Below are positions 3,860 to 64,000 of a stretch of DNA of 64,000 bases, piece by piece (positions within the stretch are counted from its first letter, which is position 1; each line of letters starts with the position of its first letter). A model generated the notes under the pieces. That model saw only the letters and a program-made list of their open reading frames with translations, made no database searches and was not told the origin of the DNA. The DNA is from Shigella phage ChubbyThor: sequence record OL615013. One strand, given 5' to 3'. A program made the position numbers and the translations under genes.

Positions 3860-4975
3860 TTATGCGTCCAGTTTGTTCAGGCGTTGTTGGGCAGCATTGT
3901 AGAAGTGCTCTGCCAGTTTACAGACGTTGTCAGGGCGCTGGATGTTGTTCCCGGCGCGGATATCCTTCTTCAGGACTTCCACTGCATCGGTTGCCACCAT
4001 CTCTTCGGTGACCTCAACCTTCTCAGCCGCCACGGTGATAGTCCGGTCGATGAAGTTGTAGTCAATGCACTTGCAGCGCTTCATGGCATCACAGAACTTT
4101 TCATAATGCTTAGCATTGTCGCGGTTCTGTACGATAACCTTAACGATCTGTCCTTCAATACCCAAGCCTGTGTTCAGCCATTCCGGGTCGATCCAGTTAC
4201 CCTCATCGTCTGAGGACAACTTGGTGTAGTCATACTCCACATAGCGGAACAACGTCTGGTGCTCGCTGTTGGGGATGAATACCTCGCCGCCGCGCATATC
4301 GTCTACATAGAAACCACGGTTGGTGCCGTCTTTGTAGTCTTCCCAGTTCAGGTGATACGGAGTCCCAATATATTGAATGTTACCTTCCATCGAACGGGTA
4401 TGGAAATGTCCCGTGTCGACCCTGGTAAACTTGGAAAGCAGAGCAACGTCGATCTGACCGTGATCACAAGTAGAAGACTGGTACATTTTGAACCCTGCCA
4501 GCTCCAGATGCGCAAAACAGTACTCGGCGTCTGTATCTTGTATCGCTTTAATAGACGCATCATAGTTCTCCTTGTTGATCCAAGGCAGCAGCAGAGTCTT
4601 GACACCCTCGATCATCACTTCGGTCGGTTCGCTGTAGTAGCAGTACACATCTGGGTCGAGTTCGTTCAGGTAGGATGGCCAGTTGATGCGGTTGGACTCT
4701 TCCAGGGTGATGTCGTGGTTGCCAACAATGCCATTCCACTTGATGTCAGCCGCTTTCAGCGCTGGAGTTAATTCATCCTTCAGCCAGTCTTTGTCGCGCC
4801 CGTACATGAATTTTCGGACGTCAAACGTGTCACCCAATTGCCAGACCTCATGGATGTCCGAGTCGACAAGCTCGGGGATGAAATAGTTGATGAGGTAGTT
4901 CTTGATGAAGTCGCGAACGTAACGGGAACCATTACGGCTCCCGATATGCAGATCGCCTATTTTAGCAATCGCCAT
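3860..4975 (-). CDS. 47: recombination endonuclease subunit, SbcD/Mre11-like nuclease (T4 gp47-like)
   Basis: Calcineurin-like phosphoesterase motifs GDLHIG, GDTFD, GNHD; directly downstream of gp46-like gene. Confidence 0.85.
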   Translation of the reverse strand: MAIAKIGDLHIGSRNGSRYVRDFIKNYLINYFIPELVDSDIHEVWQLGDTFDVRKFMYGRDKDWLKDELTPALKAADIKWNGIVGNHDITLEESNRINWPSYLNELDPDVYCYYSEPTEVMIEGVKTLLLPWINKENYDASIKAIQDTDAEYCFAHLELAGFKMYQSSTCDHGQIDVALLSKFTRVDTGHFHTRSMEGNIQYIGTPYHLNWEDYKDGTNRGFYVDDMRGGEVFIPNSEHQTLFRYVEYDYTKLSSDDEGNWIDPEWLNTGLGIEGQIVKVIVQNRDNAKHYEKFCDAMKRCKCIDYNFIDRTITVAAEKVEVTEEMVATDAVEVLKKDIRAGNNIQRPDNVCKLAEHFYNAAQQRLNKLDA

Positions 4976-5703
4976 TATTCTGTTTCTCCTTCGGTTTCGT
5001 CCAAATCGAATTGGGTTTTGCCAAAGTCCTGATCTGAATTGTCTTCGGCCTGCGCTGTTACCGTATTCTTAGCCTGCGCCATGTATTGAAGTATGCCTTT
5101 CGCAATCTTTTTATTCGATTCTGCGAGACGAGCCGCCTCCACCTTCTCTCGCTCCTTCTGCCTTTGAGCGTCCTTTTTGTTCTCAAAGTTACCGATACGT
5201 TCACGGAAGTCCATGCCAATCCCTGTCGCGTCAACAAAGATCTCTTGTTGGAAGTCGGGATCGTCTGCCAGGCCTGCGAACCCACCCGCCTCTTCAAATG
5301 AGCGCAATTTGATGTACGTGTGTTCTTCTTCGATGTTCAGTTTACGAGCAAATGAGCGATCCGCACACATGGTCACCCAAGAGAAGAAGTTGATCTTCCC
5401 TTTCTTTCCAATGTGGTCGACGTCAAAGGTGTGGAGGTAACGCAGGATGTTGACGATTGCTTCAGAGACCATGTCTTCACGGAAGGGATAGTCGCGATAG
5501 TTGTAGCGGGTGCTCATCTTGGTGATGATGCGCTGGACCTGTAGAGCAACATAGTTGGGGATCTTTGGAAGCCTGGTGCCTTCAGCCAGAGCCTTCTTAC
5601 GAGCAGGGATCCAATCACGAAGGATACTGATGACACGCTCGTTATCTTCGTCCGTGAAATATTTGACGACATTCTCGCCACGATCAACATAATTCATACC
5701 CAT
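4975..5703 (-). CDS. 55: late-transcription sigma factor (T4 gp55-like) with C-terminal extension
   Basis: Recalled similarity to T4 gp55 (ILRDWI, YNYRDYPFREDMVSEAIVNILRYLHTFD, FFSWVTMCADRSFARKLNIEEE); T4-like 47-55 synteny. Confidence 0.75.
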   Translation of the reverse strand: MGMNYVDRGENVVKYFTDEDNERVISILRDWIPARKKALAEGTRLPKIPNYVALQVQRIITKMSTRYNYRDYPFREDMVSEAIVNILRYLHTFDVDHIGKKGKINFFSWVTMCADRSFARKLNIEEEHTYIKLRSFEEAGGFAGLADDPDFQQEIFVDATGIGMDFRERIGNFENKKDAQRQKEREKVEAARLAESNKKIAKGILQYMAQAKNTVTAQAEDNSDQDFGKTQFDLDETEGETE

Positions 5704-10238: not shown

Positions 10239-10295
10239 GATATAGTTCTCTCAAATGAAAGGGCGACCTTATGATAAGCCGCCCTGGATTATTGA

Positions 10296-11204
10296 TTATT
10301 GGAAATCGCCGACATACATGTTCAGCTTGTCATCCCAGTTCAGAACGATGCGGATCGTTCCGGAATCTTCAGGGAATGACAGCTTAGAGCACATGGCGCG
10401 ATTGACATAAGTCCCGCTCTGGTTGACGTTGTAGTCCTTGCCTTGCATAATACCGAAGCGCTTGAAGTCGCGAGTGACCATCATGTTCAACGTGGTCCAC
10501 GGAATGATGTCACGCAAGGCTTTACACAGGATGATCTTGCCATCCGACCTGAACGACACAAACAGCTCGTTGGCGATACGACGGCGAGCAGGCGGCTCGA
10601 GTTCGCGCAGGGAGATAAATTCAGAGGGATCGTCCAATGCACCCAGGGTGATCATGTCTTCGCGAACTTTATTGACAATTTCAGTTACTGCTGACACGAC
10701 TTCAACTGCCGGATTCGTCTTAAATGGCTCAACAGTCGTGGACATCTTGGATACAGACATCCCGTTGCCGTTGCGCTTCTCTGCATATTGCTCGACGGAC
10801 TTGTCGCTCACCGGAGGCAGTTTGGTGGCAGGAGTTATGACCGGGCTTGCATCTGGTTTCGCCTTTGGGGTACTCCGAGCCGCACGCAGCTTTTCCTGGG
10901 CTTCCAGAATGCGCTCTTGACGAGAAAGTGGAGCCTTTGGGGTGATCTTCGTACTGAAATCTGAAACGCCGACCCAATCACCCTGGTCATTACGCTTGGC
11001 GACCAGAGTCAGTTTGTGGATGATGCCCTGAAGTTTGCTCTCACGCAAGTTGTCGGCATACCAGAACTTCGCGCCCATCTCGAACTTCTCGGCGAAGATC
11101 ACGCGAGCGTCTTCGTGTACCAACATAACTTTGGCTGTGTTGGGGGCAAAAGCCTTATTCTTTTCGATAATCGCCGCAGCGATTGATTTGGTCAGGAGCA
11201 TCAC
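10296..11204 (-). CDS. hypothetical protein (302 aa) with Pro/Lys-rich linker
   Basis: ORF track; long ORF, no recognised motif. Confidence 0.5.
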   Translation of the reverse strand: MMLLTKSIAAAIIEKNKAFAPNTAKVMLVHEDARVIFAEKFEMGAKFWYADNLRESKLQGIIHKLTLVAKRNDQGDWVGVSDFSTKITPKAPLSRQERILEAQEKLRAARSTPKAKPDASPVITPATKLPPVSDKSVEQYAEKRNGNGMSVSKMSTTVEPFKTNPAVEVVSAVTEIVNKVREDMITLGALDDPSEFISLRELEPPARRRIANELFVSFRSDGKIILCKALRDIIPWTTLNMMVTRDFKRFGIMQGKDYNVNQSGTYVNRAMCSKLSFPEDSGTIRIVLNWDDKLNMYVGDFQ

Positions 11205-15005: not shown

Positions 15006-15023
15006 CGGGGTAATCATACCCCG
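15006..15023 (-). terminator. GC-rich hairpin (repeat copy 2), terminator-like
   Basis: CGGGGTA / TACCCCG stem, loop ATCA; near-identical to 14447..14466. Confidence 0.45.
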
Positions 15024-15038
15024 CCCAAAGTTATAGAA

Positions 15039-30519: not shown

Positions 30520-32018
30520 TTACCCAGCGCCACCTTCATGAACTCCACAGGGTGGCGCTCTGTCAGGTAGAACTTGTAACGCTCATGAGAGTGCCTGATA
30601 GCGTGGTTCGTGCTGGCGTTGTACGACACATCATCCACTAAGTCCCATATCCACGCGACGTCCTTGGAGGAGTGCTGACGCATCAGACGACCCAATGTCT
30701 GTATGACGCGGATATATGACTTGCTCGGGTGCGCCAGTACAAGGTGGTGTAGCTTCTTGATTGACACACCCTGTTGCATTGTCCCGTATGAAGCCAACAA
30801 CGTGATATCCTCTCCATCCTCCATCGCTTTCTGTATGCGGCGGCGGTCTTCGATCTTCACTTCCCCGTTGATGACAAACACGTTGGGCTTGACTGCGCTC
30901 AGCATATCGTACACAACCATCATGTGGGCGTCAATACGCTCGAACATGATGGCCACGTTCCCTTTCAGATTCAGTGCCATCTTGGCGATCAGTTCGTTGC
31001 GGGACTGGTGTGTAATAAGGTATTCTATTTCCTTGGTATAATCCCCGTCCAGACCAACAGCATCCGCCGGAGTGTGCTTCAACTGAATCATCTTCACTTT
31101 GATGTCAGTGGCGTACCCGAGATTGATAAGGTCGCGAGCCGTGATGATCTTATGGTACGCCCCGAAGTGAGCCACCACCTGAAGCCCGGCAACTTTGGTG
31201 TTCGACAGCGTACCTGTAACCCCCAGGCGCTGGTCGGCGTAGATGCAGTTGTTGAGGATGTAGGACAGTTTCTCAGACTTGGAGGTATGCACTTCATCCA
31301 CCACGATGTCGCCGAACTGGTGGAACCATTCTTTCGGCTGGTCTTGAATGCCCTGCCATGTACTGATGACGATTGGTTTGCTGATTTCCTTTGTCGCGCC
31401 CTCAAAGATCAACTGAGTGTTGGCAACGGGCTTCCAATCGCTGCCGTGTGCGTACTCTTCAAAGTTGTCGTACAGCTGAGTGACCAGGTGAATCGACGGC
31501 ACCACGATAAGCGTCTTCAGAGGACTTTCGAGAGCTTCTCTGCGCTGCCTGTAGTACCGCGCCATGACATACAGAATAAAGGACTTACCAGCACTCGTAG
31601 CCAGTTCACAGACGCATCTGGTTTGACGCATAGCCTTGGCGATGGTGTCGTACTGATAGTCGCGGGTCTCAGCATCGATGTATTCGTGATTTTCGGTGCG
31701 GATCTTTGGATGGAGACTGTCGATGAAGTCATGGATTTCTTGATCTGGGATGTCCTGAATGTACTTCAGAGCCGGATCCAGTTCAATGGTGTATTTGTTG
31801 TTCTTGCAGAACTTGAACACCTCAAACAGTAGGCCGATATCAATCAGACCGGATGACTTGGTGAACAAGCGAACAACCCCGTCCCATTTAGAGAAGGGGT
31901 TGGGAACGAAGTTCGGGTCTTCGAATTTGAAGTAGTCATTCAGCTCTTCCCTGATAGAAAGATCTGCGATGCAACGCATGCGGACTTCGTTAACCTTAAC
32001 AATCTGAATGTCTGCCAT
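30510..32018 (-). CDS. uvsW: UvsW-like SF2 DNA helicase
   Basis: Walker A LATSAGKS, VVDEVH box, KEWFHQFG, LHHLVLAH, TLGRLMRQHSSK, WDLVDD recalled as T4 UvsW-like; start moved to ATG at 32016-32018 with GGGAGA SD. Confidence 0.85.
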   Translation of the reverse strand: MADIQIVKVNEVRMRCIADLSIREELNDYFKFEDPNFVPNPFSKWDGVVRLFTKSSGLIDIGLLFEVFKFCKNNKYTIELDPALKYIQDIPDQEIHDFIDSLHPKIRTENHEYIDAETRDYQYDTIAKAMRQTRCVCELATSAGKSFILYVMARYYRQRREALESPLKTLIVVPSIHLVTQLYDNFEEYAHGSDWKPVANTQLIFEGATKEISKPIVISTWQGIQDQPKEWFHQFGDIVVDEVHTSKSEKLSYILNNCIYADQRLGVTGTLSNTKVAGLQVVAHFGAYHKIITARDLINLGYATDIKVKMIQLKHTPADAVGLDGDYTKEIEYLITHQSRNELIAKMALNLKGNVAIMFERIDAHMMVVYDMLSAVKPNVFVINGEVKIEDRRRIQKAMEDGEDITLLASYGTMQQGVSIKKLHHLVLAHPSKSYIRVIQTLGRLMRQHSSKDVAWIWDLVDDVSYNASTNHAIRHSHERYKFYLTERHPVEFMKVALGNHD

Positions 32019-32043
32019 ACAAAATCTCCCAAGGAATATGGGG

Positions 32044-32050
32044 TATTTAG
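32044..32050 (-). promoter_or_regulatory. CTAAATA late-promoter-like motif upstream of uvsW
   Basis: minus-sense CGCTAAATACCCCATATT about 26 nt upstream of ATG 32018. Confidence 0.4.
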
Positions 32051-34538: not shown

Positions 34539-35180
34539 ATGCGCGGGATCAGTAGATTGTTGTTGGCATGCGCGATGCTCTTACTTACGAGCTGTCGCAT
34601 CTTTGTCACGCCAATAATTTCTGTTTCCGAACTCTGGAACCCAGAAGTACGCACCGTACCTGTGACGTTGTCGGCCAGTGTTCCTACTTGTAACAAGGGT
34701 ATGCTGGACATCATCGTGCAAGAGTTCCAGACCTTCCAGAAGCTCGTACCTTTAGGTTGCTTCGAGGAGAACACGAGCACCCTCAAGCCTTACTGGAAGA
34801 CCACGATTCCCCTCCTGCGGCGTGGCGATGAAGGGAAGATTCCATACCTATCAGCAAGTATTTATTACTCTCAGAACAACAGCATCATCATCACTTTTAA
34901 TCCATCATTCTACGCCAAGCTGAAGCAACACATGGTTGGGCGACTGAGTGAAACATCGGATATAATCGTGACGTTCAAAATCATGAATGACTCAGATAAA
35001 CCAGTACGAATCGCAACTCAGGGTGTGTTTGTCAACAACGATGCTGTTGGGAATGAGATGAACATCTTCGAAGTGAAGCCAGAGGGGACGATCTGGATCA
35101 GGCTGAGCAACGTCGGGGTGAACTCCCTACTGTTGGATGGCATCGAACCAGTGGGAGTTCTTCCGGCTCGGGAGCGCTGA
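34539..35180 (+). CDS. predicted lipoprotein (213 aa), plus-strand gene
   Basis: Track start is TTG; first ATG at 34539 gives MRGISRLLLACAMLLLTSC with lipobox LTSC; converges on 35182..35910. Confidence 0.45.
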   Translation: MRGISRLLLACAMLLLTSCRIFVTPIISVSELWNPEVRTVPVTLSASVPTCNKGMLDIIVQEFQTFQKLVPLGCFEENTSTLKPYWKTTIPLLRRGDEGKIPYLSASIYYSQNNSIIITFNPSFYAKLKQHMVGRLSETSDIIVTFKIMNDSDKPVRIATQGVFVNNDAVGNEMNIFEVKPEGTIWIRLSNVGVNSLLLDGIEPVGVLPARER

Positions 35181-35181
35181 A

Positions 35182-35910
35182 TTACTTCAGCGCGCTCTTC
35201 AGATTATCAGAACCGATGTTGTTGATAACGCCACCAGCGCACAGGTCTTTAGCCCACTCAGACAGTACATTGGCGAACGAGAAGTTCAGACACTTGCTGA
35301 CCATGTCTTGGATGTGGGCTAACTCTGAGGCAATACCATTGGCGATATCCTGACCGATTTGCGCCACCTGAGCAATAGCATCGTTGATATATCCGGTAAC
35401 TTCGGCGGCCAGCGCCTGGATCTTTGCCAGGCCAGCGCTCACACCCTGCGCAACTAACTCAGCCAGTTCGGCCATCTTGGCGGTAACAGTGCTGAGAGCG
35501 CCCTCCATGGCCCCGATCCACTGGTGCCCAAGAGTCTGTATGACGCCGAAGGCATTATTGATCAGATCACAGTTGGTCGGCTCGCGCTCGATTGACTTCA
35601 GGCCAGATTTGTACGACACGGAAGTCCCGATGCGGGAATACGCTTCGTTCACAGTCTGATCACCATAGTTGTTCAGCGTGGTGAGGCTGGTGTCGGCAGA
35701 GGTGAACATCGTGTTCGTTTCATTGAGTTTGGCTGTGGTTAGACCGCCTGCCGTCAGAGCGCCCTGGATTTGCGTATTTCCGGTGTTTGCCAGTGCAGCT
35801 GTAGTCGCCTTGCCGCTGGTGATTAAACCCTGAGACGTGCTGCTGAGGGACGGGAGAGGATTGTTAAATGCGTTGCCCTGCTCAAGGGCGTCATAGATCT
35901 GTGCGTTCAT
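35182..35910 (-). CDS. hypothetical protein (242 aa), Ala/Gly/Thr-rich N-terminal half
   Basis: ATG at 35908-35910 (MNAQIYDAL...), immediately after a perfect hairpin carrying the CTAAATA motif. Confidence 0.55.
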   Translation of the reverse strand: MNAQIYDALEQGNAFNNPLPSLSSTSQGLITSGKATTAALANTGNTQIQGALTAGGLTTAKLNETNTMFTSADTSLTTLNNYGDQTVNEAYSRIGTSVSYKSGLKSIEREPTNCDLINNAFGVIQTLGHQWIGAMEGALSTVTAKMAELAELVAQGVSAGLAKIQALAAEVTGYINDAIAQVAQIGQDIANGIASELAHIQDMVSKCLNFSFANVLSEWAKDLCAGGVINNIGSDNLKSALK

Positions 35911-35913
35911 AGA

Positions 35914-35942
35914 AAATACCCCCATGGATGATGGGGGTATTT
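35914..35942 (-). terminator. perfect 12-bp hairpin directly upstream of a start codon
   Basis: AAATACCCCCAT / ATGGGGGTATTT arms with 5-nt loop; minus-strand RNA continues UCU then AUG. Confidence 0.5.
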
Positions 35943-35944
35943 AG
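35938..35944 (-). promoter_or_regulatory. CTAAATA late-promoter-like motif upstream of 35182..35910
   Basis: minus-sense CCTAAATACCCCC, part of hairpin, about 28 nt upstream of ATG. Confidence 0.4.
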
Positions 35945-35948
35945 GTGA

Positions 35949-36116
35949 TCATGGCAGTTTGTAAACGAAGTTGGACCAGAACTTCCGAGCGAACTTCTTG
36001 GCATAGACCTTCCAGTCGGCGTATTCGCCTTCCTTCAGGTCATTGTAGGTCTCGAACCCTACTGCTCCCAGGAAGTACGCCGTGAAGATATAGCAGAACA
36101 GATTGACGACAAACAT
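35949..36116 (-). CDS. small hydrophobic protein (55 aa)
   Basis: Not in ORF track; ATG at 36114-36116 with GGAG SD about 9 nt upstream; translation MFVVNLFCYIFTAYFLGAVGFETYNDLKEGEYADWKVYAKKFARKFWSNFVYKLP. Confidence 0.4.
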   Translation of the reverse strand: MFVVNLFCYIFTAYFLGAVGFETYNDLKEGEYADWKVYAKKFARKFWSNFVYKLP

Positions 36117-36157
36117 GATGTATCTCCGCTGTGTGAACTCAAATTATTTATGGTATG

Positions 36158-36580
36158 TTACAAAAGGCGCTTGGTCTTCGGCTTGCCCATCAGTGTGATG
36201 TCCACAGGGAGGCCAGCTTTCTTGCAACGGTTGATCATGTCCAGGGTGCCAGTGGACGAGCCGTCCCACATCGCAATCGGATACACTTCCAGCTTGGTCT
36301 GCCTGACGAGATCCAATGCCTTGTCTAACATGTCCTGATTGCGTTTGTTGCCCATCCCTTTCCCATACTTTTCATAATAGCTCGGAGGGATTGGCATAGG
36401 AGTGATATGAACATAATTGATTTCAGCCCAATCACGGCAAATCGTGTCGACACCCGTGGCCTCACCCTCGATCAACGTATAGACTTCATGAGGATCGAGG
36501 AGTTCGTCCAGCTTGGCGAATACCTTATCCCGCTCGGTGATTGAGCGGGAACCTGTAACGAGTACGATATATTTCTTCAT
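36158..36580 (-). CDS. SLOG/DUF2493-like Rossmann-fold protein
   Basis: MKKYIVLVTGSR...GEATGVD...YGKGMGNKRNQDML...AMWDGSSTGTLDMI pattern; track start is GTG, moved to ATG at 36578-36580. Confidence 0.5.
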   Translation of the reverse strand: MKKYIVLVTGSRSITERDKVFAKLDELLDPHEVYTLIEGEATGVDTICRDWAEINYVHITPMPIPPSYYEKYGKGMGNKRNQDMLDKALDLVRQTKLEVYPIAMWDGSSTGTLDMINRCKKAGLPVDITLMGKPKTKRLL

Positions 36581-36585
36581 GGAAC

Positions 36586-36906
36586 TCACAGCGCCCCAAG
36601 ATTGCCGATGACATACAGGGAGCACAGAGGAGTGCCTGACGAACGGGGTTCGATTGTCATCCCGCTCAGGCGGATCAGTTCCAGTAAGCCGTCAGTGGTT
36701 TGATACGCGCGTGTCGAACCGTTCGGGCGATAAAGCTCCAGCTCGGTTCTTCCTTCCTTTAATGCATTACGGATACGAGCGAACACACTGTGGTCGCCGA
36801 ACTTCTGTTTCAGAAGGTCCAGCTTGGTGACCAGTCGACGACGCGATTTGCGCGCACGAGGGTTCTCTTTTACGACCGCTTCTAAAATTGGGATGCTGTT
36901 AGCCAT
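36586..36906 (-). CDS. hypothetical protein (106 aa)
   Basis: ORF track; ATG start. Confidence 0.4.
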   Translation of the reverse strand: MANSIPILEAVVKENPRARKSRRRLVTKLDLLKQKFGDHSVFARIRNALKEGRTELELYRPNGSTRAYQTTDGLLELIRLSGMTIEPRSSGTPLCSLYVIGNLGAL

Positions 36907-36965
36907 GATAAAGTCCTCTATTTGTAGGGGATAGGGTATGCGGTTAACATACCCCGTTCAAAGGT

Positions 36966-37247
36966 TTAGAACAAATGCTCGCCTTCCACATGGTATGCTA
37001 ACACGCCGTCAGAACATTCAAAATACATGTTATCATATTCCCACAGAGCGGTGATTTCTTCACCCTGGCAAACTACCGAAAACTTCGGCTGGCTGGCCTT
37101 AACTGGAAATTTTTCAGGGGAAGAGATTGGGGTGAATTTGGCATTTCTGACGGCCATACCAACAAATTGCTGCAATGTTACTTTGTAACGAGAGTGGGTG
37201 ATAGTACCAGCATTCAGGGCTTCGATCAATTGCGCTTTAGTTGTCAT
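36966..37247 (-). CDS. hypothetical protein (93 aa)
   Basis: ATG preceded by conserved leader AAGGAACTATATC. Confidence 0.45.
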   Translation of the reverse strand: MTTKAQLIEALNAGTITHSRYKVTLQQFVGMAVRNAKFTPISSPEKFPVKASQPKFSVVCQGEEITALWEYDNMYFECSDGVLAYHVEGEHLF

Positions 37248-37350
37248 GATATAGTTCCTTCATTTCAGAGTCAGTGTTGTGCTGCTTATGGAATGAAGTA
37301 TACGGGGTTTATTGAAGAAGTAAACCCCGTTTATTGAATAAATTTAAAAT

Positions 37351-38276: not shown

Positions 38277-38339
38277 GACACAGCCCTCGGATAGTAGACG
38301 GGGCAATAATACCTCTCGCCCCGTTATTGAAATGATCTT

Positions 38340-41281: not shown

Positions 41282-41288
41282 TACTTAG
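41282..41288 (-). promoter_or_regulatory. CTAAGTA variant motif upstream of gp23
   Basis: minus-sense ACTACTAAGTAATTTCAAC about 32 nt upstream of ATG 41250. Confidence 0.3.
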
Positions 41289-43432: not shown

Positions 43433-45124
43433 TTATTCTTCACCACCAGGAGGGTTAGTCGCTGGGATGACGTTAGGTCTGAATTTCAGTGGGCTGACTT
43501 CACCGCCGCCGAAGCCGCCTGATTCATCTGCCTGCACTTCAGGATATTTGCCTTCTTTCTTCTCTTGCGCGATCTTCTCTTGCTGATCTTTGATGTCTTC
43601 GTCAGACATACGCAGCAGATTGCGCTGAGCAAAATCGATAGAGAACAGGGTGCCAATGTACGGTTCGATCTGACCAAGAGCAGACATGCGTTGCGCCAGG
43701 ATTTCGTTTTCCTGCTGCTCACGAATGAAGCTGTCAGATGTAAATTCGAACTTGACAAACGGCTTGATCTTTTCGTTCCAATCAGTCTGGTCAGTGATGT
43801 TCTTCAGGATCAGCTGACGACGAAGAAGTTCAAGGAAGAATCCTGAATAACGACGACGCAGGCCTGAACAGAATTTGTTGAAGCGCAGTTCTTCCTGGGT
43901 GATTTCAGCAAGATTGGAACCACCGATGTTGATGGAACCTTCCTCTTGGAGGCGGCTCTTAGGGATCATCAGAGCCTCGTAGAGCTTCTCGCGGAAGTAT
44001 ACCACATGATCCATTTGACCCAGTTGATCGCCGCCACCTACGTTGGATATCTCCGTTGCGTTCTGCCCTTCGCGGCGCGGCAACCAGTAGTCTTCAGCGA
44101 TACCCATCAGATGGGTATTGCCTGCCACTTTACCAGTGGTGCGATCATACGCCAGACGGTTCTTGAATTTACCCATCATCGCCTGCATATACTCTTCCGC
44201 AGACTTCTTACCCAGAGTACCCACGTCGAGATAGAACGCTCGCTTCTCTGGAGCACGCGTGATGGCGTAGATGACCGTCGCATCCTCAGTTGTAACGAGG
44301 TTGTTCAGGGGACGGATAGCAGGGTTCAGAAAGCCTGGGATGACCCCATTGGCCAACGGATCTTCACCACTGTCGATGTAGACAACGCTTTCTTCGTCAA
44401 ACACCAGTTCCTGCTGCGACGGCTGGAAGTTCTGAGACGTGCCCGATTGCCCAGTAAACTGATTGCGGTTGTAGTTCGGGTTGTAGTAATATTGAAGTTT
44501 GACTTCTCCAATTACCTCGATACCGTCGCGAACTTCTTTCTTCACGATGTATACAGGGCGGATGCAGCGAGAATCCAGCATCACCAGTTTGGCAATACCA
44601 CCTTTCTTGTTCTTTGGATCAACGACAACATGGTAAGCCTGACGACCTTCTACATACCAACGACGGATCTTTTGATATGCGGTGTTGTTGAAGTCCATGA
44701 GTTCAAGAACTTCCTTGAAGGCATCATTGATCTTTTCTTTGATGGAGTCGTCGATGCCTTCAACCTTTTCCAGATTGATTGTGACGGGAGTCTCATCCTC
44801 TTCACAGGTGACGACGTCGTTCACGATAATATCGACAGCCTTACGGATCTCAGGTTGCTGAGCCATAGACTGATATTCTTCGACGACTTGTTTGACGCTG
44901 AGTAGTTCACTCTCAACGCCTACGAAATTGAATGTGTTGGCACCGCCCTGCAAGATGATAGAACCATCCTGAGCATCGTCCAGCGCAACAACAGCCGCTT
45001 TTGAAAGCAACTTCTCTTCTTGGTTCGTTACCAGTTTGTCGGTGTCTACCGGGGCTTCAATCTTCCCGCCAGTACCGAACAGACCGAAGAACCCGTTACC
45101 GAATGCACCATTACCGAATGCCAT
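43433..45124 (-). CDS. 20: portal vertex protein (T4 gp20-like)
   Basis: 563 aa, position between gp19 and gp67 as in T4. Confidence 0.75.
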   Translation of the reverse strand: MAFGNGAFGNGFFGLFGTGGKIEAPVDTDKLVTNQEEKLLSKAAVVALDDAQDGSIILQGGANTFNFVGVESELLSVKQVVEEYQSMAQQPEIRKAVDIIVNDVVTCEEDETPVTINLEKVEGIDDSIKEKINDAFKEVLELMDFNNTAYQKIRRWYVEGRQAYHVVVDPKNKKGGIAKLVMLDSRCIRPVYIVKKEVRDGIEVIGEVKLQYYYNPNYNRNQFTGQSGTSQNFQPSQQELVFDEESVVYIDSGEDPLANGVIPGFLNPAIRPLNNLVTTEDATVIYAITRAPEKRAFYLDVGTLGKKSAEEYMQAMMGKFKNRLAYDRTTGKVAGNTHLMGIAEDYWLPRREGQNATEISNVGGGDQLGQMDHVVYFREKLYEALMIPKSRLQEEGSINIGGSNLAEITQEELRFNKFCSGLRRRYSGFFLELLRRQLILKNITDQTDWNEKIKPFVKFEFTSDSFIREQQENEILAQRMSALGQIEPYIGTLFSIDFAQRNLLRMSDEDIKDQQEKIAQEKKEGKYPEVQADESGGFGGGEVSPLKFRPNVIPATNPPGGEE

Positions 45125-45190: not shown

Positions 45191-45724
45191 TTACAGAGAC
45201 TTATCAGAAATGGCCTGGAAGTAACGCAGATCGACAGTGAACTGAGTATATGAGTCCATTGCAGACATATCCAGTTCCAGCTGGCCGAGGTTCTGAGGCC
45301 AACCCCCCTGCAGAGTCCAGGTCTTAGTGACGTTGTCGTTCGCATCCAGTAACTCCATGATCACGTCACGGAAATAGTCATCTGGATTCGCCGCCGCACG
45401 GTTGCTGTTGCTTCCGTTAATGTACTGCTGCCAAACTTCAAAGGCGTTGTAAGCAGAGTTGTTCACGACGTTGATGAACGTAATAGGAAGCGCTTCGAAG
45501 CGGCGATCACCAGGGAATGGAAGTTCACGACCACCCCAAGGCACAAGGATCTCACCCAGCTGGCCAGTAGGAGTGTTGGTTGTTACTGCCAACAGAGACA
45601 CGTCGCGAATGGTATCCGCGCCAGCTACGAATGCTGGGAAGTTGACGGTCACACGCCAGCGGTGCTGACGTTGTACGCCGCCCCCACGTGACATGGCCGC
45701 GCGAAATTCATTAACTGTAGCCAT
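45191..45724 (-). CDS. 19: tail tube protein (T4 gp19-like)
   Basis: 177 aa, position between sheath and portal as in T4. Confidence 0.7.
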   Translation of the reverse strand: MATVNEFRAAMSRGGGVQRQHRWRVTVNFPAFVAGADTIRDVSLLAVTTNTPTGQLGEILVPWGGRELPFPGDRRFEALPITFINVVNNSAYNAFEVWQQYINGSNSNRAAANPDDYFRDVIMELLDANDNVTKTWTLQGGWPQNLGQLELDMSAMDSYTQFTVDLRYFQAISDKSL

Positions 45725-52078: not shown

Positions 52079-52729
52079 TTATTCTCCAAAGTCGATCTTC
52101 ATCTTGTCCACTGCAAGCCCCTTCTCAAGCACATCCGCCAAAGCATTGTCGGTCTGCAGAGAAGAATCCTTGTACACGTCCGGTTCGTTCTCTTCGTCCA
52201 AGATGGACAGACGTTTGTCGATATCGTCGATCTCCGGAACGCCTGTATCGAAGTTTTCGTTGCCGTACTGGAACAACGTGCACGGCAGAGAGAACGTATA
52301 CCATTTGCCAAATTGCATGAAGTCTTCATCGTTGTTCGGGTTGTTGACCTTGAAGATCTTGTTCGCCAGGGGCAGGTAGATCAGGTCACCTTCCTGAGGT
52401 TGTTGTTCAATCCCAACACCGTTGCCTATCACCTCAGCAAAGCGGCGGCGCGAGATAGAGAACGTCACCTCATCCTGTAGATTAATACCCCCGAACTTCT
52501 CCCACATCTGGGTGTTGAAGCCCTGGTAATCCTGCATGTAAACTTCGATGTCGAACGCTTGGTCGAATCGATGGTTTGCATCGTTGGTGACTGGGAATTT
52601 TTCAACGATGGAACGTGGTATATACTTGACGTCTATCCCACGCAACTGAATCATTTCTTGCACCAAATCTTCAATCAGCTTCTGTGTGCCTTGGTGATTG
52701 GTGGCGTTGAAATATTTTGAAGTGGCCAT
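52079..52729 (-). CDS. 14: neck protein (T4 gp14-like)
   Basis: Position between gp13 and gp15; assignment by synteny only. Confidence 0.55.
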   Translation of the reverse strand: MATSKYFNATNHQGTQKLIEDLVQEMIQLRGIDVKYIPRSIVEKFPVTNDANHRFDQAFDIEVYMQDYQGFNTQMWEKFGGINLQDEVTFSISRRRFAEVIGNGVGIEQQPQEGDLIYLPLANKIFKVNNPNNDEDFMQFGKWYTFSLPCTLFQYGNENFDTGVPEIDDIDKRLSILDEENEPDVYKDSSLQTDNALADVLEKGLAVDKMKIDFGE

Positions 52730-52752
52730 ATCGATACCCTCAATTTTGAAGG

Positions 52753-52759
52753 TATTTAG
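52753..52759 (-). promoter_or_regulatory. CTAAATA late-promoter-like motif upstream of gp14
   Basis: minus-sense CGACTAAATACC about 24 nt upstream of ATG 52729. Confidence 0.4.
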
Positions 52760-59328: not shown

Positions 59329-61113
59329 TCAAGCGGAAGCATTCCATTGGCCAGCATTGATCACCCATGTGCTCGTTACTTTTGAATACACCATTTTCAC
59401 GAGATTCATTTTCGTGGTGGCGGTGTTAGCGCCAGTCACATCAACAGGGACACCCGCTATGCTCAATGAAGCAATGTTTGAACCTCTCAGTAAAAACGTC
59501 AGCTCCATACCATCATATGGCGTACCAGTAAATGCGATGTTGGAACCAGAAGAAACGTTTCTTCGATAGCACCCATAACCGCTGTTTATGTCGACAGAGT
59601 CAGTTGTGAGCTGTAATGGCAATTTTCCACGACTTAGTTTACATGCCGTTACAACGCCGAGATCATCAATGCCTCGACTTGCACCCCAACGTGCGATGTT
59701 GACTATGTGGCCAGTCACACCAGCGTCTTGCGCACCACCAATGTCGAAGAAACCTCCAGCCCTTGTACCCCATATCGGCTCATCAATCAAGCTGTTGGTG
59801 GAGCCAGTTACACTATAACCATGTGCGAGGGTTCCTTGGCTTGGAGAAGAGTGTGTACAATCTCGGAATGTAGCATCTTGAGAACCACTGATGCGGACAT
59901 CAGAGATACTATTGTTCTCGTAATACATTCCATATACCTTTGTTCCCTTGGCCTGATCCAAGAAACCATACTTCGTGGTATTCTGGCTGAACCCGTTAAC
60001 AAAACAGACTGCTTCTGTGGGGAATGTTGTGGTGTAATCCCAAGAGGTCCCGCCGTCGGTGGAGTGTCTTACGATAATACCATAATCTGGCATATCCACT
60101 TCTGGTGCACCGGAATAACCGTCAAATCCTGTTATCACAATAGCATTGGCACCGTTCTGTACTATTAACCGACTAGAACCAGCCCCGCCGCCGATAACCT
60201 CGCAACCGTCTATTTTCAAACCGTAGCACAAAGTCCCTATCTCTATCCCGACATTATTAATGGCCGTCCCCATGTCTACCCACATCATATCCAGATGTCC
60301 ATGGTTCCTCCAATATTTGGCTCTGAAAGCGACGCAACCCGTTTTACCATTCAATGATATTCTGATATTGTGTAATTTGCAGTTTCTCACTGCATTGCCA
60401 CCAGAACGGGAAGGGTCAATCGTGAGAACACCGACATTATTTCCACCAGCCAAGAATAATGCACCGGAATGTGCATAAATTTCAGAGTTAGGATAAAACG
60501 CCAACGCCTGGCCAGTTACCGTATAGTTGCCAGGAAGAAACTGGAATGTCCCACCCTGGGATAATTTAGTTTGTATAAGAGACTGAGACATCGAAGGGTC
60601 GATGACAGTTAGACGATAAAACCCAGAGTATAACTCATCTCTCAATGCATCTGGATCCAATTTCACCCAGTTAGAACTTGACAACCCACCAGTATTGGCA
60701 ATGGTGCTCCCAGCATTTACAGATTTGGGTAAAGTACCACCCCAACGGTAAAGGCTTGTACCATCAGAAACGACTTCATTTCTAACACGTATCGTGAACC
60801 CCGAATCGAAGTTTTCGACCAAAGTTACAAATTCCTTCCGAAGCACTGCAAGAACCCCCAGGTCTACAGTGCCCGTATTGTGTACGAGAATGCCGTCTGT
60901 CAGGCTGGTGATGGTAGCGCCAGCGGGCAGGTTGGAAGGCAGTGCATAGGAGCGCTGAGTGACCTTATCGTAGATCACCTTGTAACCAGTCAGGGTGGAT
61001 CCTGGTTTAGCATAGAGAACCTCAGACTTCTTGCACCCAAACTTACGAGCAATGGAGTCTTTGTTTGTCTCCTTAGAGACAGAGCCTTTCGGCTGTGAAA
61101 ATTGCGGATTCAT
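59329..61113 (-). CDS. tailspike-like protein with right-handed beta-helix region (putative depolymerase)
   Basis: Repetitive G/N/V/I-rich segments (NAVRNCKLHNIRISLNGKTGCVAF ... GIEIGTLCYGLKIDGCEVIGGGAG) typical of pectate-lyase-fold tailspikes. Confidence 0.6.
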   Translation of the reverse strand: MNPQFSQPKGSVSKETNKDSIARKFGCKKSEVLYAKPGSTLTGYKVIYDKVTQRSYALPSNLPAGATITSLTDGILVHNTGTVDLGVLAVLRKEFVTLVENFDSGFTIRVRNEVVSDGTSLYRWGGTLPKSVNAGSTIANTGGLSSSNWVKLDPDALRDELYSGFYRLTVIDPSMSQSLIQTKLSQGGTFQFLPGNYTVTGQALAFYPNSEIYAHSGALFLAGGNNVGVLTIDPSRSGGNAVRNCKLHNIRISLNGKTGCVAFRAKYWRNHGHLDMMWVDMGTAINNVGIEIGTLCYGLKIDGCEVIGGGAGSSRLIVQNGANAIVITGFDGYSGAPEVDMPDYGIIVRHSTDGGTSWDYTTTFPTEAVCFVNGFSQNTTKYGFLDQAKGTKVYGMYYENNSISDVRISGSQDATFRDCTHSSPSQGTLAHGYSVTGSTNSLIDEPIWGTRAGGFFDIGGAQDAGVTGHIVNIARWGASRGIDDLGVVTACKLSRGKLPLQLTTDSVDINSGYGCYRRNVSSGSNIAFTGTPYDGMELTFLLRGSNIASLSIAGVPVDVTGANTATTKMNLVKMVYSKVTSTWVINAGQWNASA

Positions 61114-61164: not shown

Positions 61165-63870
61165 TTAGTTAACGGAATCGAGAGAAGAAATCAATTTCAA
61201 ATTGATCTGTACCTGAGACTCCGCAGTTACAGCAGGAATAGCCAGACCACCAGCATTAAGCCCAAAATTCGCAATAAAGCCAGTAGTTGAAGATCTCACT
61301 ACGTCAAATCCTGTACCGCCTGAGCCGGTGCTTGCAAATTGAGTCTGCTTAGCACCGAAAGCATCACCCGTACCAGCTATTGCTACTTGCCAAATACCAC
61401 GGAATAACGTAGCCGCAATATTAGCTGCCGCAGCGCCAGCAGCACGAGTGATCTTCATGTTGTCGTAGAACCAGACTTCCTGAATTGTAGCAATGTTACG
61501 AGCACCGAAACTAACAACTTGGTTCCCTTCAAAGCTGTAGTTAGTTCGGTTATCAACAACAAAATCACATAACATACAGGTCTGGGTAGACACATTAAGA
61601 TCTAAGGTATTTCCATGTGCAATGAGTGACTTAGGAATACCTTGTACGCGGAAACCCGCAGAACGGTATGTAAGATTCAACGTATTTAATTGCTTGATAC
61701 TGTTAGCCATCAGTTTCACACGTTGACCTCGGTATACCATAGTGTTAGCTGCACCTGCGTTAACAATAATACCTTCGGCATTGTTATTAAGCGTATCGCA
61801 CTTCAGCACTACAGTATTATGGCTAATATCAATATCCTGGAACACAGCATAAGTTGCATCCCCTGCTCCGGTACTGATTGCAACACCATCAAAAGCTCGG
61901 AGTTCGCAATAGTTATTATTGATTTTAACAAAAGGATCTGGGTAAGTAGCCTGGGTTGCTTCACCCCCACCACCAACATCAATGCTCCTTGTATACTTGC
62001 CTCCAATTAACAAACCAGTAGTAAAACTGGCAGGTATGTTACGAGAACGCACATAGTTATTGGAAATGATTAAGTTATAAGGTTCATAGTTCGGTGCCCA
62101 ACCCGACCCACATTTAGCATAAATACCTACAACACCATGTTCTAAACACTGGTTATTGGTAATGATCGCCTGACCGCCACCGTGGAAGTCAATACACTTA
62201 CGGCGACAGTTACGAATCATGTTTTCACTGATGGTTACATTACGAATGCGGCGGTTACGTCCATGCGTGATTCCGTAACCAGGATCGTAACTGGCATTCA
62301 GGGTATCATCACCATTCGGGTGACCAATATCTTCAATGTTATTTCCCAGATAAACTAAGCGATAACCAGACAACACATAAATTCCTGCACTGTAACAGTT
62401 ACGAATGTAACACTTGCTTACCATCACACCATCTGGAACATCAGATTCTGTGGTGTAGTCGGCGCTACCGTAAGCTACGGCTGCATTACGGATACCAATA
62501 CCTACAGCACCATAGTTAAAGCCTGTGATGCGGCAACGATTGATTAAAATGCCACGACAAGCACGCTGAACTTTAATACCACAAGCCCAGCTACCGATGT
62601 AACCATTTAAGAACTCACCCCATTTGTTCTGCCAACCTGCTGCTTGGGATCCATCAGCATTATAATTAGGGAATTGTCCTTGAGTACCGTCATAAGCACC
62701 ACTGGTATAGTTGCTGGTATCAAGCCCATTATTAGGTGCAAGTACCATAGCGCTGTCATACCCGAAACGCTCTTCGCCTTTTTCAGCATAACCAGTAGTA
62801 ACATCGATAGCAGGAAATACACCTGGCCCCTGAATTGCTAACTCTACAGTCACGTTTTCACAAGCAATAAGCGCAAGTGCATCCATACCGTGAGTTTTTA
62901 CAATTAAAGTACCGTTGTAAATTTTGATGTTCTTCTTGCCTACTAAAGCCAAGCAAGGACTAAAGTTGTGAGTACCGTCAGAAAAATCAGGTTCAGATGG
63001 ATATTTAGTAGCCAAGTCTGGATTTTTACTGATCAGGTACGTACCACCATAGAGATTAATATCTCCAGTGGATGCATCAAAATAATTTTGAAGCGCTTTA
63101 GTATCATCAGCCTGACCATCAGCTTTTGCTTTAAAATCTTTAGGGCTTAAGTTCTCATTGCCTTTATCCTGGATAGTACGTGCTACCGTATCCGCACCAG
63201 GGGCTTTGTAGCCAACTAAAGATGAACCTGTAGATTTGGCTAAATCTGCACGAAGGGTGTCATCTACGCTTTCTAAAGCCTCATTAATAGTGTTAAGTTC
63301 TTCCTGTACCGTGTTACCGGAAGTTGTACCAATCAGACTTGCGCCTCCATCGGAAGAGAGCGCCAGGTAATTCTGTTTGATGGACATCTCAGCCACAACC
63401 CAAACACCAGCAGCCGGAGATCCATTCAGGAACGACACCACACCAGTCGTTCTGTTGTAGGTGTAATCAACCCCAGGAACCTGGAACTTCCCGTCAATGT
63501 GCAGAGATTGTACACCATATGTCGTGAAGTCTGGGGTGAATGAGGTCTCGCTGCCAACTGCCTGGAACTTGTAGATGCGAATCCCGTTTTCATAATCTTC
63601 TGGTGACAGGATCTTGTCAAATAGGCAGTAAACGACGTCATCTGCTTCAAGAGATCGACCGAGGTTGACTGTGTTCCCATCGATTTCATAGTTGTCAACA
63701 GGAACCTGGACGCCGCCGTTGATGGTGATGAATCCCGTAACAGGATAGAACGGGAGGGAGATAAACGTCTCTCCACCCGTTGCTGTGTAAGTGTATGGAA
63801 TCTGGTGCGGGGCTGTTACAACCGCTCCAAAGATGCTCTCGACGTTTCTGGTCATTTGAAGATACCCCAT
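61165..63870 (-). CDS. tailspike-like protein with right-handed beta-helix region (putative depolymerase)
   Basis: PbH1-like repeats (IRNCYSAGIYV, ISENMIRNCRRKCIDFHGGGQAIITNNQCLEHGVVGIY, IISNNYVRSRN); 901 aa. Confidence 0.6.
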   Translation of the reverse strand: MGYLQMTRNVESIFGAVVTAPHQIPYTYTATGGETFISLPFYPVTGFITINGGVQVPVDNYEIDGNTVNLGRSLEADDVVYCLFDKILSPEDYENGIRIYKFQAVGSETSFTPDFTTYGVQSLHIDGKFQVPGVDYTYNRTTGVVSFLNGSPAAGVWVVAEMSIKQNYLALSSDGGASLIGTTSGNTVQEELNTINEALESVDDTLRADLAKSTGSSLVGYKAPGADTVARTIQDKGNENLSPKDFKAKADGQADDTKALQNYFDASTGDINLYGGTYLISKNPDLATKYPSEPDFSDGTHNFSPCLALVGKKNIKIYNGTLIVKTHGMDALALIACENVTVELAIQGPGVFPAIDVTTGYAEKGEERFGYDSAMVLAPNNGLDTSNYTSGAYDGTQGQFPNYNADGSQAAGWQNKWGEFLNGYIGSWACGIKVQRACRGILINRCRITGFNYGAVGIGIRNAAVAYGSADYTTESDVPDGVMVSKCYIRNCYSAGIYVLSGYRLVYLGNNIEDIGHPNGDDTLNASYDPGYGITHGRNRRIRNVTISENMIRNCRRKCIDFHGGGQAIITNNQCLEHGVVGIYAKCGSGWAPNYEPYNLIISNNYVRSRNIPASFTTGLLIGGKYTRSIDVGGGGEATQATYPDPFVKINNNYCELRAFDGVAISTGAGDATYAVFQDIDISHNTVVLKCDTLNNNAEGIIVNAGAANTMVYRGQRVKLMANSIKQLNTLNLTYRSAGFRVQGIPKSLIAHGNTLDLNVSTQTCMLCDFVVDNRTNYSFEGNQVVSFGARNIATIQEVWFYDNMKITRAAGAAAANIAATLFRGIWQVAIAGTGDAFGAKQTQFASTGSGGTGFDVVRSSTTGFIANFGLNAGGLAIPAVTAESQVQINLKLISSLDSVN

Positions 63871-63891
63871 AGAGGATTTGCCAATATGGGG

Positions 63892-63898
63892 TATTTAG
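63892..63898 (-). promoter_or_regulatory. CTAAATA late-promoter-like motif upstream of tailspike-like gene
   Basis: minus-sense CACTAAATACCCCATATT about 22 nt upstream of ATG 63870. Confidence 0.4.
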
Positions 63899-63976
63899 TG
63901 ATAATGGATATCAGCCGGAACCGCCACCTTGAGAGAATAGATCTTTCATACCACACCTCAATTTTATTCTAAGAAT

Positions 63977-63996
63977 AAGCCCCCATTTGGGGGCTT
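63977..63996 (-). terminator. terminator hairpin at right window edge
   Basis: AAGCCCCC / GGGGGCTT 8-bp stem, loop ATTT, A/U-rich flank. Confidence 0.5.
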
Positions 63997-64000
63997 AGTT

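Follow-up and report, generated by a model that had tools for sequence, protein, structure and literature searches.

In bacteriophage T4, long early or middle transcripts form a helix that hides the Shine-Dalgarno sequence and/or the AUG of e, soc, 49, I-TevI, segB and mobE (PMC3014915, PMC2988022). For genes of the e type, a late promoter lies directly upstream and its DNA specifies the 5' strand of this helix; late transcripts lack that strand and are translated (PMC3014915, PMC2988022). The T4 late promoter is an 8-bp box with the consensus TATAAATA, located about one helical turn upstream of the start, and only this box is required. For the ViI-like phages (Viunalikevirus/Ackermannviridae), the literature of 2011 stated the late promoter to be unidentified, and in later work the sequence CTAAATAcCcc is named among the features of the group, as a 'unique regulatory motif' (PMC7283392). 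Here we analysed a hairpin at positions 35914-35942 of a 64,000-nucleotide (nt) stretch of Shigella phage ChubbyThor (sequence record OL615013), referred to below as the window. The hairpin joins this motif to the ribosome site of the next gene. We consider it likely to be a compact late-gene expression cassette of the T4 e/soc/49/I-TevI type that doubles as an intrinsic terminator.

Results

An earlier note on this DNA had pointed to a perfect 12-bp hairpin ending 3 nt ahead of a start codon, and both statements hold. On the minus strand, the 5' arm AAATACCCCCAT (35942..35931) pairs with the 3' arm ATGGGGGTATTT (35925..35914) around the 5-nt loop CATCC (35930..35926); read on the plus strand, 35914-35942 is the perfect inverted repeat AAATACCCCCAT GGATG ATGGGGGTATTT. 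Only TCT separates the 3' arm from the ATG at 35910, which opens the orthologue of orf00174 (orf174) of Shigella phage phiSboM-AG3 (Ag3). The gene on the other side is the orthologue of Ag3 orf00175 (orf175), whose stop codon TGA at 35951-35949 lies 6 nt ahead of the stem. The minus strand thus runs TGA CACC TAAATACCCCCAT CATCC ATGGGGGTATTT TCT ATG. The orf175 protein starts with the hydrophobic stretch MFVVNLFCYIFTAYFLGAVGF, compatible with a membrane protein, in line with the proposed location between the stop of a small membrane open reading frame (ORF) and the ATG at 35910.

Five C-G pairs form the core of the stem. A folding-energy calculation, the check proposed for this hairpin, gave -19.5 kcal/mol for the minus-strand RNA (z = -4.2), and none of 200 shuffled sequences was equally stable. 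No other perfect hairpin in the window is as long, and none but this one reaches 12 bp (loop 3-20 nt), against a chance expectation of 0.07 per window under a first-order Markov model, in which 5.5% of the simulated windows contained one or more. Rfam covariance models gave no match at E up to 1 in 35700-36200.

The stem contains several putative regulatory motifs. The CTAAATA box, a predicted T4-type late-promoter -10 box, occupies 35938..35944 on the minus strand, and with the following CCCC (to 35934) it makes an exact copy of the family motif CTAAATAcCcc (35944..35934). The box had been described as embedded in a hairpin spanning 35914-35944; its AAATA does form the base of the 5' arm, but 35943-35944 only complete the motif and are not part of the stem. 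Inside the 3' arm lies a Shine-Dalgarno-like GGGGG (35919..35923, minus strand), 8 nt 5' of the orf174 ATG. The U-rich tract UAUUUUCU (35911..35918, minus strand) comes next; five bases at its 5' end are paired to AAAUA in the promoter box, and together with the GC-rich stem it resembles an intrinsic terminator. Judged by T4 geometry, late transcription would start at about 35932 (an A, 6 nt past TAAATA; 35931..35933, minus strand). No more than 2 nt of the 5' arm would remain in the late mRNA, whose leader would be AUCAUCCAUGGGGGUAUUUUCUAUG.

The 3' arm also contains an ATG at 35925, which we rejected as the orf174 start since no Shine-Dalgarno sequence precedes it and other genera have it out of frame or not at all. 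An in-frame ATG within the 3' arm occurs at both orf174 (35925) and the tailspike gene (63870), in each case on the minus strand and probably unused. The mechanical ORF list begins orf174 at 35925, and the KFM-TASP06 record extends the coding sequence upstream, so that such codons could mislead gene callers. We likewise rejected a reading of the hairpin as an RNase III site, for which a 12-bp stem is too short.

CTAAATA shares the last six of its eight positions with TATAAATA. Ten copies are present on the minus strand of the window and none on the plus strand, and eight of the ten lie 30-53 nt upstream of annotated starts: those of the tailspike, orf206 (large structural protein), gp14, gp18, gp22, orf174, UvsW and orf114.1. 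Leaving aside orf114.1, these are virion genes plus uvsW, and in T4 uvsW is a late gene. The longer form CTAAATACCCC, with at most one mismatch, has five copies in the window, all on the minus strand, versus 0.33 expected, and exact CTAAATAcCcc recurs at 32050 and 63898. The window encodes a gp55-type late sigma factor (4975..5703, minus strand), which had no Pfam match and was identified through PHROGs (phrog_234 'late sigma transcription factor', E = 3.6e-52), as well as a gp45 sliding clamp (phrog_223, E = 1.8e-64). Ag3 encodes gp55, gp33 (annotated at 43935-44180) and gp45. At the loci orthologous to the hairpin, the box reads CTAAATA in Agtrevirus and Limestonevirus, TTTAAATA in Taipeivirus, TTAAATA or exact TATAAATA in Kuttervirus and cATAAATA in Miltonvirus and phage phiMAM1. 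Because of the orthologous TATAAATA boxes, the gp55 and gp45 genes in the window and the strand-specific placement upstream of T4-late-type genes, we predict that CTAAATA at 35944..35938 is a T4-type late promoter. In the Ag3 paper (Anany et al.), in which TATAAATA was searched for, the hairpin site is listed neither as promoter nor as terminator.

The possibility of a bidirectional promoter was rejected, as the plus strand reads AAAATA and faces no gene. Variants of the box, CTAAGTA and CTAATTA, lie 31-47 nt upstream of major late genes that have no CTAAATA, at 41288 (gp23), 43427 (orf190), 45155 (portal), 45762 (gp19) and 27644 (RegA), all on the minus strand, to which these variants are almost exclusively confined. 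They may be weaker or variant late promoters.

The effect of the hairpin on ribosome access was calculated as the cost of opening -18..+10 around the AUG in read-through RNA and in the predicted late RNA. These targeted opening energies, together with a permutation test of pairing in cis and in trans (see below), replaced a coarser measure, the mean unpaired probability of -15..+3 in RNA starting at -70 versus predicted late RNA. Opening the orf174 ribosome site cost 19.3 kcal/mol in read-through RNA and 10.9 kcal/mol in the predicted late RNA. Among seven genes with such hairpins, read-through RNA was costlier to open by 6-15 kcal/mol, while the difference for most other late-type genes was -3 to +4 kcal/mol (exceptions: gp6 with 5.8 and orf107 with 7.5).

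Terminator-like features are present as well, namely the GC-rich 12-bp stem with its 5-nt loop close behind the orf175 TGA, followed by UAUUUUCU, which holds 6 U in 8 positions provided that the tract is taken to include the A-U base of the stem. The orthologous hairpin of KWBSE43-6 is annotated as a terminator by ARNOLD (-14.7). A stem followed by a U-tract is found at orf174, at the Ag3 endolysin gene and at UvsW, and no other terminator lies between each of these elements and the co-directional upstream gene. The most economical reading is a three-in-one cassette, which would terminate incoming RNA or otherwise silence it and then restart transcription from a late promoter within the hairpin. 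The note had suggested that one element may both terminate transcription of the gene upstream and act as promoter or regulator of ribosome access for the next one; each of these roles finds independent support in silico.

We then compared orthologous intergenic regions, fetched via the downstream protein from 18 IMG/VR genomes and from phiMAM1, KWBSE43-6 and KFM-TASP06. The core AAATACCCCCA / TGGGGGTATTT was kept in 21 orthologous loci of five genera (Agtre-, Limestone-, Taipei-, Kutter- and Miltonvirus), with one C fewer in Limestonevirus and one C-to-U change, giving a G.U pair, in phiMAM1. Although its protein is only 50% identical, phiMAM1 retains 12 pairs, the top pair being changed from U-A (Agtrevirus) to C-G and one pair being the G.U. 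The loop varied among CATCC, CATAC, TCAAT, AAAT and GAACCT, and the sequence 5' of the box diverged. In contrast, the 3' arm was unchanged across genera despite diverging flanking intergenic bases, and a tract of 3-5 T ahead of the orf174 ATG was found in all genera. The case for a structure presumably under selection at this locus is made by the conservation of two arms amid drifting context, and not by covariation statistics.

Elements of the same design precede other genes of the window. The tailspike element (63862..63898, minus strand) consists of CTAAATA at 63898..63892 and the arms ATACCCCATA / TATGGGGTAT, which form 10 bp around a 13-nt loop upstream of the ATG at 63855. The hairpin proper (63862-63894, -16.3 kcal/mol) carries GGGG in its 3' arm and, in this window, has no U-tract. 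It had been proposed to span the tailspike start; the hairpin is real, but it ends 6 nt upstream of the annotated ATG and contains only the in-frame ATG of its 3' arm. Its stem was invariant in 5 loci whose loop and upstream flank diverge, and a separate terminator (63976-63997) lies about 80 nt upstream. At gp14 (neck/head closure; 52734..52759, minus strand), CTAAATA is combined with ATACCTTC / GAGGGTAT, 8 bp with one G.U ahead of the ATG at 52729. The Shine-Dalgarno GAGGG is in the 3' arm, there is no U-tract, and a divergent gene precedes; the stem is kept in most genera and replaced in some. A degenerate version at UvsW (32016..32050, minus strand) reads CTAAATACCCCA..TGGGAGATTTTGT ATG, with AAAU/AUUU and CCCA/UGGG pairing around a 2x2 internal loop.

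We also scanned the complete Ag3 genome for TAAATA upstream of ORFs and obtained 25 sites, most of them with pyrimidine-rich bases in the five positions past the box. Three further elements were found there. The endolysin gene orf097 is preceded by TTTAAATACCTTCGCA TTCAT TGCGGAGGTATTTTCTT ATG, a stem of 13 bp with one G.U and a 5-nt loop, which Anany et al. listed as the terminator Torf098. In its arms, C-G has been replaced by U-G and G-C by G-U, and 98.7% of the alignment cells are paired; the helices are near-invariant, which makes the covariation shuffle control uninformative. The RuvC-like (Holliday-junction) resolvase gene orf079 (Ag3 45306-45350) has TAAATAGCCCATA, 17 nt and TATGGGCTATTTA C ATG, with 13 bp, and orf248 has TATAAATATCCTCGC .. 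GTGAGGATAT TATC ATG; neither has a good U-tract. At the resolvase, loss of a G together with its partner C in Limestonevirus and Kuttervirus has turned the Agtrevirus arms TAAATAGCCCATA/TATGGGCTATTTA into TAAATACCCATAAC/GTTATGGGTATTT(A), and one lineage with ...CATATC/GATATG... shows an A-U to U-A swap. This region is the clearest case of compensatory evolution among the loci compared, and the variation at both the endolysin and the resolvase is of an RNA type.

To compare pairing in cis and in trans, we took from each of the 25 Ag3 sites the 12-nt promoter segment that is absent from a transcript starting 6 nt past the box and paired it with the ribosome site of its own gene or of the other genes. 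Mean duplex energy was -5.3 kcal/mol in cis versus -3.2 kcal/mol in trans, and none of 20,000 shuffles reached the cis value. Cis stems of at least 8 bp were present at 7 of the 25 sites (P=0.00025).

Two side observations concern these promoters. The UvsW (32035-32050) and tailspike (63883-63898) promoters share 16 identical bases, CTAAATACCCCATATT, 15 of which are also found in the Ag3 orf227 promoter (142240-142256); the shared segments suggest duplicated or recombined promoter cassettes. At the divergent Ag3 late pairs gp4/gp48 (19023(+)/19050(-)) and gp2/gp54 (41547(+)/41571(-)), two boxes stand face to face as a TAAATA palindrome, TAAATAG-N14-CTATTTA. Each leader holds the complement of the other promoter, and the predicted starts nearly coincide.

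The window itself belongs to the genus Agtrevirus. Across 35000-37000, identity is 99.0% to Shigella phage MK-13 and 98.8% to Ag3, both Ackermannviridae of this genus, and a search with the segment returned 178 related records from ViI-like phages, Salmonella, Escherichia and Dickeya phages among them. We built the gene map by placing Ag3 proteins on the window. Almost all genes are on the minus strand, and the map includes gp23, gp22, gp21, portal, gp19, gp18, terminase, gp15, gp14, gp13, the large structural protein and tailspikes. The orf174 orthologue (35182..35910, minus strand, 242 amino acids) belongs to DUF7217 / phrog_2114. The annotation of Dickeya phage JA15 calls its product 'unknown structural protein', and several Kuttervirus records call it 'putative structural protein'. 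The orf175 orthologue (35949..36116, minus strand) encodes 55 amino acids with the hydrophobic N-terminus and belongs to phrog_4845.

Ten co-directional small genes with sigma70-like promoter/terminator cassettes lie upstream of the hairpin. The sigma70-like motif TTCAAT-N14-TATAAT, with at most 2 mismatches, matched 17 times versus 4.1 expected, 14 of the 17 on the minus strand. Sigma70-like -10 boxes are located within the loops of GC-rich terminator hairpins at 38306-38331, 15013-15038 and 10271-10296 (minus strand), and a further site of the motif is 37302-37330. TAAATA boxes can occupy the same position: at 424-451 of the window (minus strand), AAAGGGCAC TAAATACCAC GTGCCCTTT is followed by ATCTTTT, and at Ag3 60826-60856 (box at 60850), TCCCCC TAAATACA GGGGGA is followed by TTTCTTTTTCT. 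A TAAATA box in a terminator loop is a second way to fuse a terminator with a late promoter. Overlapping terminator/promoter cassettes look like a genome-wide design, not one peculiar to late promoters. Many of the small, presumably early genes share the ribosome site GAGGAnnTATATC-ATG (for instance at the minus-strand starts 10238, 14420, 15278, 24836, 36906, 37247 and 38036), often with TTTGAA(C/A) before it and directly past a terminator. Upstream of orf177, the hairpin GGGGTATG TTAACCG CATACCC (36940-36965, minus strand) uses the GGGGTAT/ATACCC words of the late cassettes in reversed order, within a promoter-like stretch TTGAAC-N17-TACCCT. For Ag3, Anany et al. proposed a sigma70-like early promoter, Porf100, upstream of the endolysin site.

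Discussion

We propose that three functions share the hairpin at 35914-35942. At the DNA level, the CTAAATA box would be read by the polymerase of the host together with the gp55-like sigma factor of the phage, and box and following CCCCCAT would also specify the 5' strand of a hairpin in the RNA. Its 3' strand would hold the GGGGG of the virion-protein gene and enter the U-tract 3 nt before the AUG. RNA coming from upstream, that is from the small genes orf184-orf175 with their sigma70-like promoters or from a TAAATA box of orf175, would contain both strands and fold the 12-bp stem; it would then either terminate at the U-tract or, on read-through, keep the ribosome site shut. Late RNA, starting about 6 nt past the box at the top of the 5' arm, would have no hairpin, would not terminate itself and would leave the ribosome site free. 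The virion protein would therefore be made only from its own late transcript.

Several observations weigh against this proposal. At orf174, covariation is slight: 100% of the alignment cells are paired, 10 of the 12 pairs are invariant, only one change is compensatory, and the shuffle control was not significant (101 of 500). The predicted late leader retains a moderate opening cost, the 10.9 kcal/mol given above, and the coarse accessibility comparison of 9 motif genes with 56 others gave no separation on shortening of the RNA (P=0.53 for the difference). A consensus terminator scan of the window did not report the hairpin, which we treat as a limit of the tool and not as a sign that a terminator is absent, because the stem was extended through the A-U pairs and too few T were left. 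The segment past the box, AT-rich in T4, is CCCCC here, and start point and promoter strength could differ from T4 for this reason. In the literature searched, we found no transcript-end mapping, RNA sequencing, timing or reporter data for Ackermannviridae. Finally, orf175 has a box of its own, cATAAATA at 36145..36152 (minus strand), 28 nt upstream of its ATG. This possible late promoter is conserved as (c/t)ATAAATA in Agtre-, Limestone- and Kuttervirus (in the latter as TATAAATA) and absent in Taipeivirus. Read-through RNA may thus be partly late itself, which weakens a purely temporal early-versus-late rationale and favours one of insulation and termination. A late transcript from the orf175 box would meet the hairpin after 168 nt of coding sequence.

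The best surviving alternative is that a plain intrinsic terminator of the orf175 unit abuts an independent late promoter. The Shine-Dalgarno sequence would then be buried without regulatory consequence, as almost no RNA would read through, and the hairpin would serve 3'-end formation and stability of the upstream mRNA alone. Much of what we described fits: the GC-rich stem and UAUUUUCU placed 6 nt past a stop codon, the ARNOLD call on the KWBSE43-6 orthologue and the listing of the endolysin sister as a terminator, the routine overlap of promoters with terminator hairpins in this genome (38306-38331, 15013-15038, 10271-10296, 424-451), and U-tracts at those sites (orf174, endolysin, UvsW) that directly adjoin a co-directional gene and have no second terminator. 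However, hairpins of the same design at the tailspike gene, gp14, the Ag3 resolvase gene and orf248 have no good U-tract; that of the tailspike lies about 80 nt past a separate terminator and that of gp14 past a divergent gene. The ordinary terminators of the genome, moreover, need not include the Shine-Dalgarno sequence of the next gene, and the complementarity between a promoter and its own ribosome site is significant genome-wide. We therefore regard this alternative as unlikely, although it is the only one of real weight.

The palindrome could also act at the DNA level, either as the site of a dimeric phage regulator repressing or activating the late promoter or by N4-like extrusion of a hairpin or cruciform that aids opening. 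A perfect palindrome over a promoter box, two arms invariant over most of their length and the face-to-face TAAATA..TATTTA palindromes of the divergent Ag3 late pairs would suit such an element. Yet the spacing of the arms ranges from 4-6 nt (orf174) and 5 nt (endolysin) to 13 nt (tailspike) and 17 nt (resolvase), and beyond TAAATAC the arms differ, leaving no common operator. The endolysin substitutions are G.U wobbles, neutral in RNA but mismatches in DNA, and the plus-strand copy is AAAATA, not TAAATA, with no gene to face. T4-type late promoters need the 8-bp box only; for this reason, and because stem and loop geometry differ, an N4-type hairpin promoter was rejected. An element acting on DNA is very improbable.

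Equally improbable is an accidental complementarity between the pyrimidine-rich post-box segment (cCcc) and a purine-rich ribosome site plus TAT, with no selection on structure: many ribosome sites of the phage are indeed GAGGAnnTAT, CCTTC, CCCCA or TCCTC past several boxes gives 4-6 bp of pairing for free, and most stem positions never vary, but pairing in trans rarely reaches 8 bp while cis stems of 8-12 bp occur at 7 of 25 sites, the 12-bp perfect stem exceeds both consensus parts (CAT/ATG), changes at the stem top are compensated in phiMAM1 and at the resolvase, and the 3' arm is invariant across genera with diverging flanks.

Beyond the single locus, the family motif CTAAATAcCcc may have a composite nature. 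Its cCcc tail is a probable anti-Shine-Dalgarno segment. A more far-reaching reading, which we put forward tentatively and hold to be possible but doubtful, is that the motif is no single polymerase-recognition element but a T4-like TAAATA -10 box fused to a cis-acting anti-Shine-Dalgarno tail (cCcc, CCTTC, TCCTC), and that Ackermannviridae use the resulting palindrome of promoter, anti-Shine-Dalgarno and Shine-Dalgarno segments, in some cases with a U-tract, as a general insulator genome-wide. If true, at least 7 genes, including those for endolysin, resolvase, tailspike, neck protein and UvsW, would be translatable only from their own late transcripts; the arrangement would have a wider reach and a more uniform build than in T4, where it is limited to a handful of cases, and would account for the GC-rich post-box segment.

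The mechanism is already known from T4 and the motif is already listed for the family; what is new is the probable occurrence in Ackermannviridae, and general principles are unchanged by this hairpin. For annotation, our analysis gives the 'unique regulatory motif', so far unexplained in ViI-like phages, an interpretation that can be tested, and it corrects the annotation of such hairpins, which in some cases are unannotated, in others are called terminators, or have led to ORFs extended from the ATG in the stem. For evolution, it suggests that a distant family of T4 relatives has kept the T4 way of confining lysis, recombination and virion proteins to late transcripts, with the endolysin and junction-resolvase functions included. 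For engineering, Ackermannviridae are in use as reporter and therapeutic phages, and insertions at such sites would break promoter, terminator and ribosome site together; conversely, the cassette could serve as a 35-nt part that couples termination to late re-initiation.

How does the locus compare with known systems? Intrinsic terminators with an upstream A-tract and the overlapping terminator/promoter cassettes of virulent phages share with it a GC-cored 12-bp stem, a 5-nt loop, a U-rich tail, an opposing A-tract and a position close behind a stop codon. Unlike them, its U-tract UAUUUUCU is interrupted and lies partly in the stem, a start codon follows within 3 nt, and the stem includes the next ribosome site. 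The CTAAATAcCcc of ViI-like phages is matched exactly, and the locus suggests that this motif is a composite of a TAAATA box and a C-rich tail that pairs with the Shine-Dalgarno sequence. Several features set the cassette apart from T4: it occurs in Ackermannviridae, its box is CTAAATA instead of TATAAATA in Agtrevirus, its post-box segment is GC-rich and not AT-rich, and for the regulated gene, which encodes a DUF7217 virion protein, no counterpart under such control is known in T4. A further difference from the T4 e-type helices is the U-tract behind the hairpin, which probably also acts as a terminator. The likeness to e, soc, 49 and I-TevI is nevertheless close. In all of them the late box is part of the 5' strand of the hairpin and directly precedes the ribosome site, the 3' strand includes the Shine-Dalgarno sequence, the late gene follows co-directional genes, and late transcripts, here by prediction, have no 5' strand. 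In Ag3 the same design is found at the endolysin and Holliday-junction resolvase genes, the functional counterparts of T4 e (lysozyme) and 49 (endonuclease VII).

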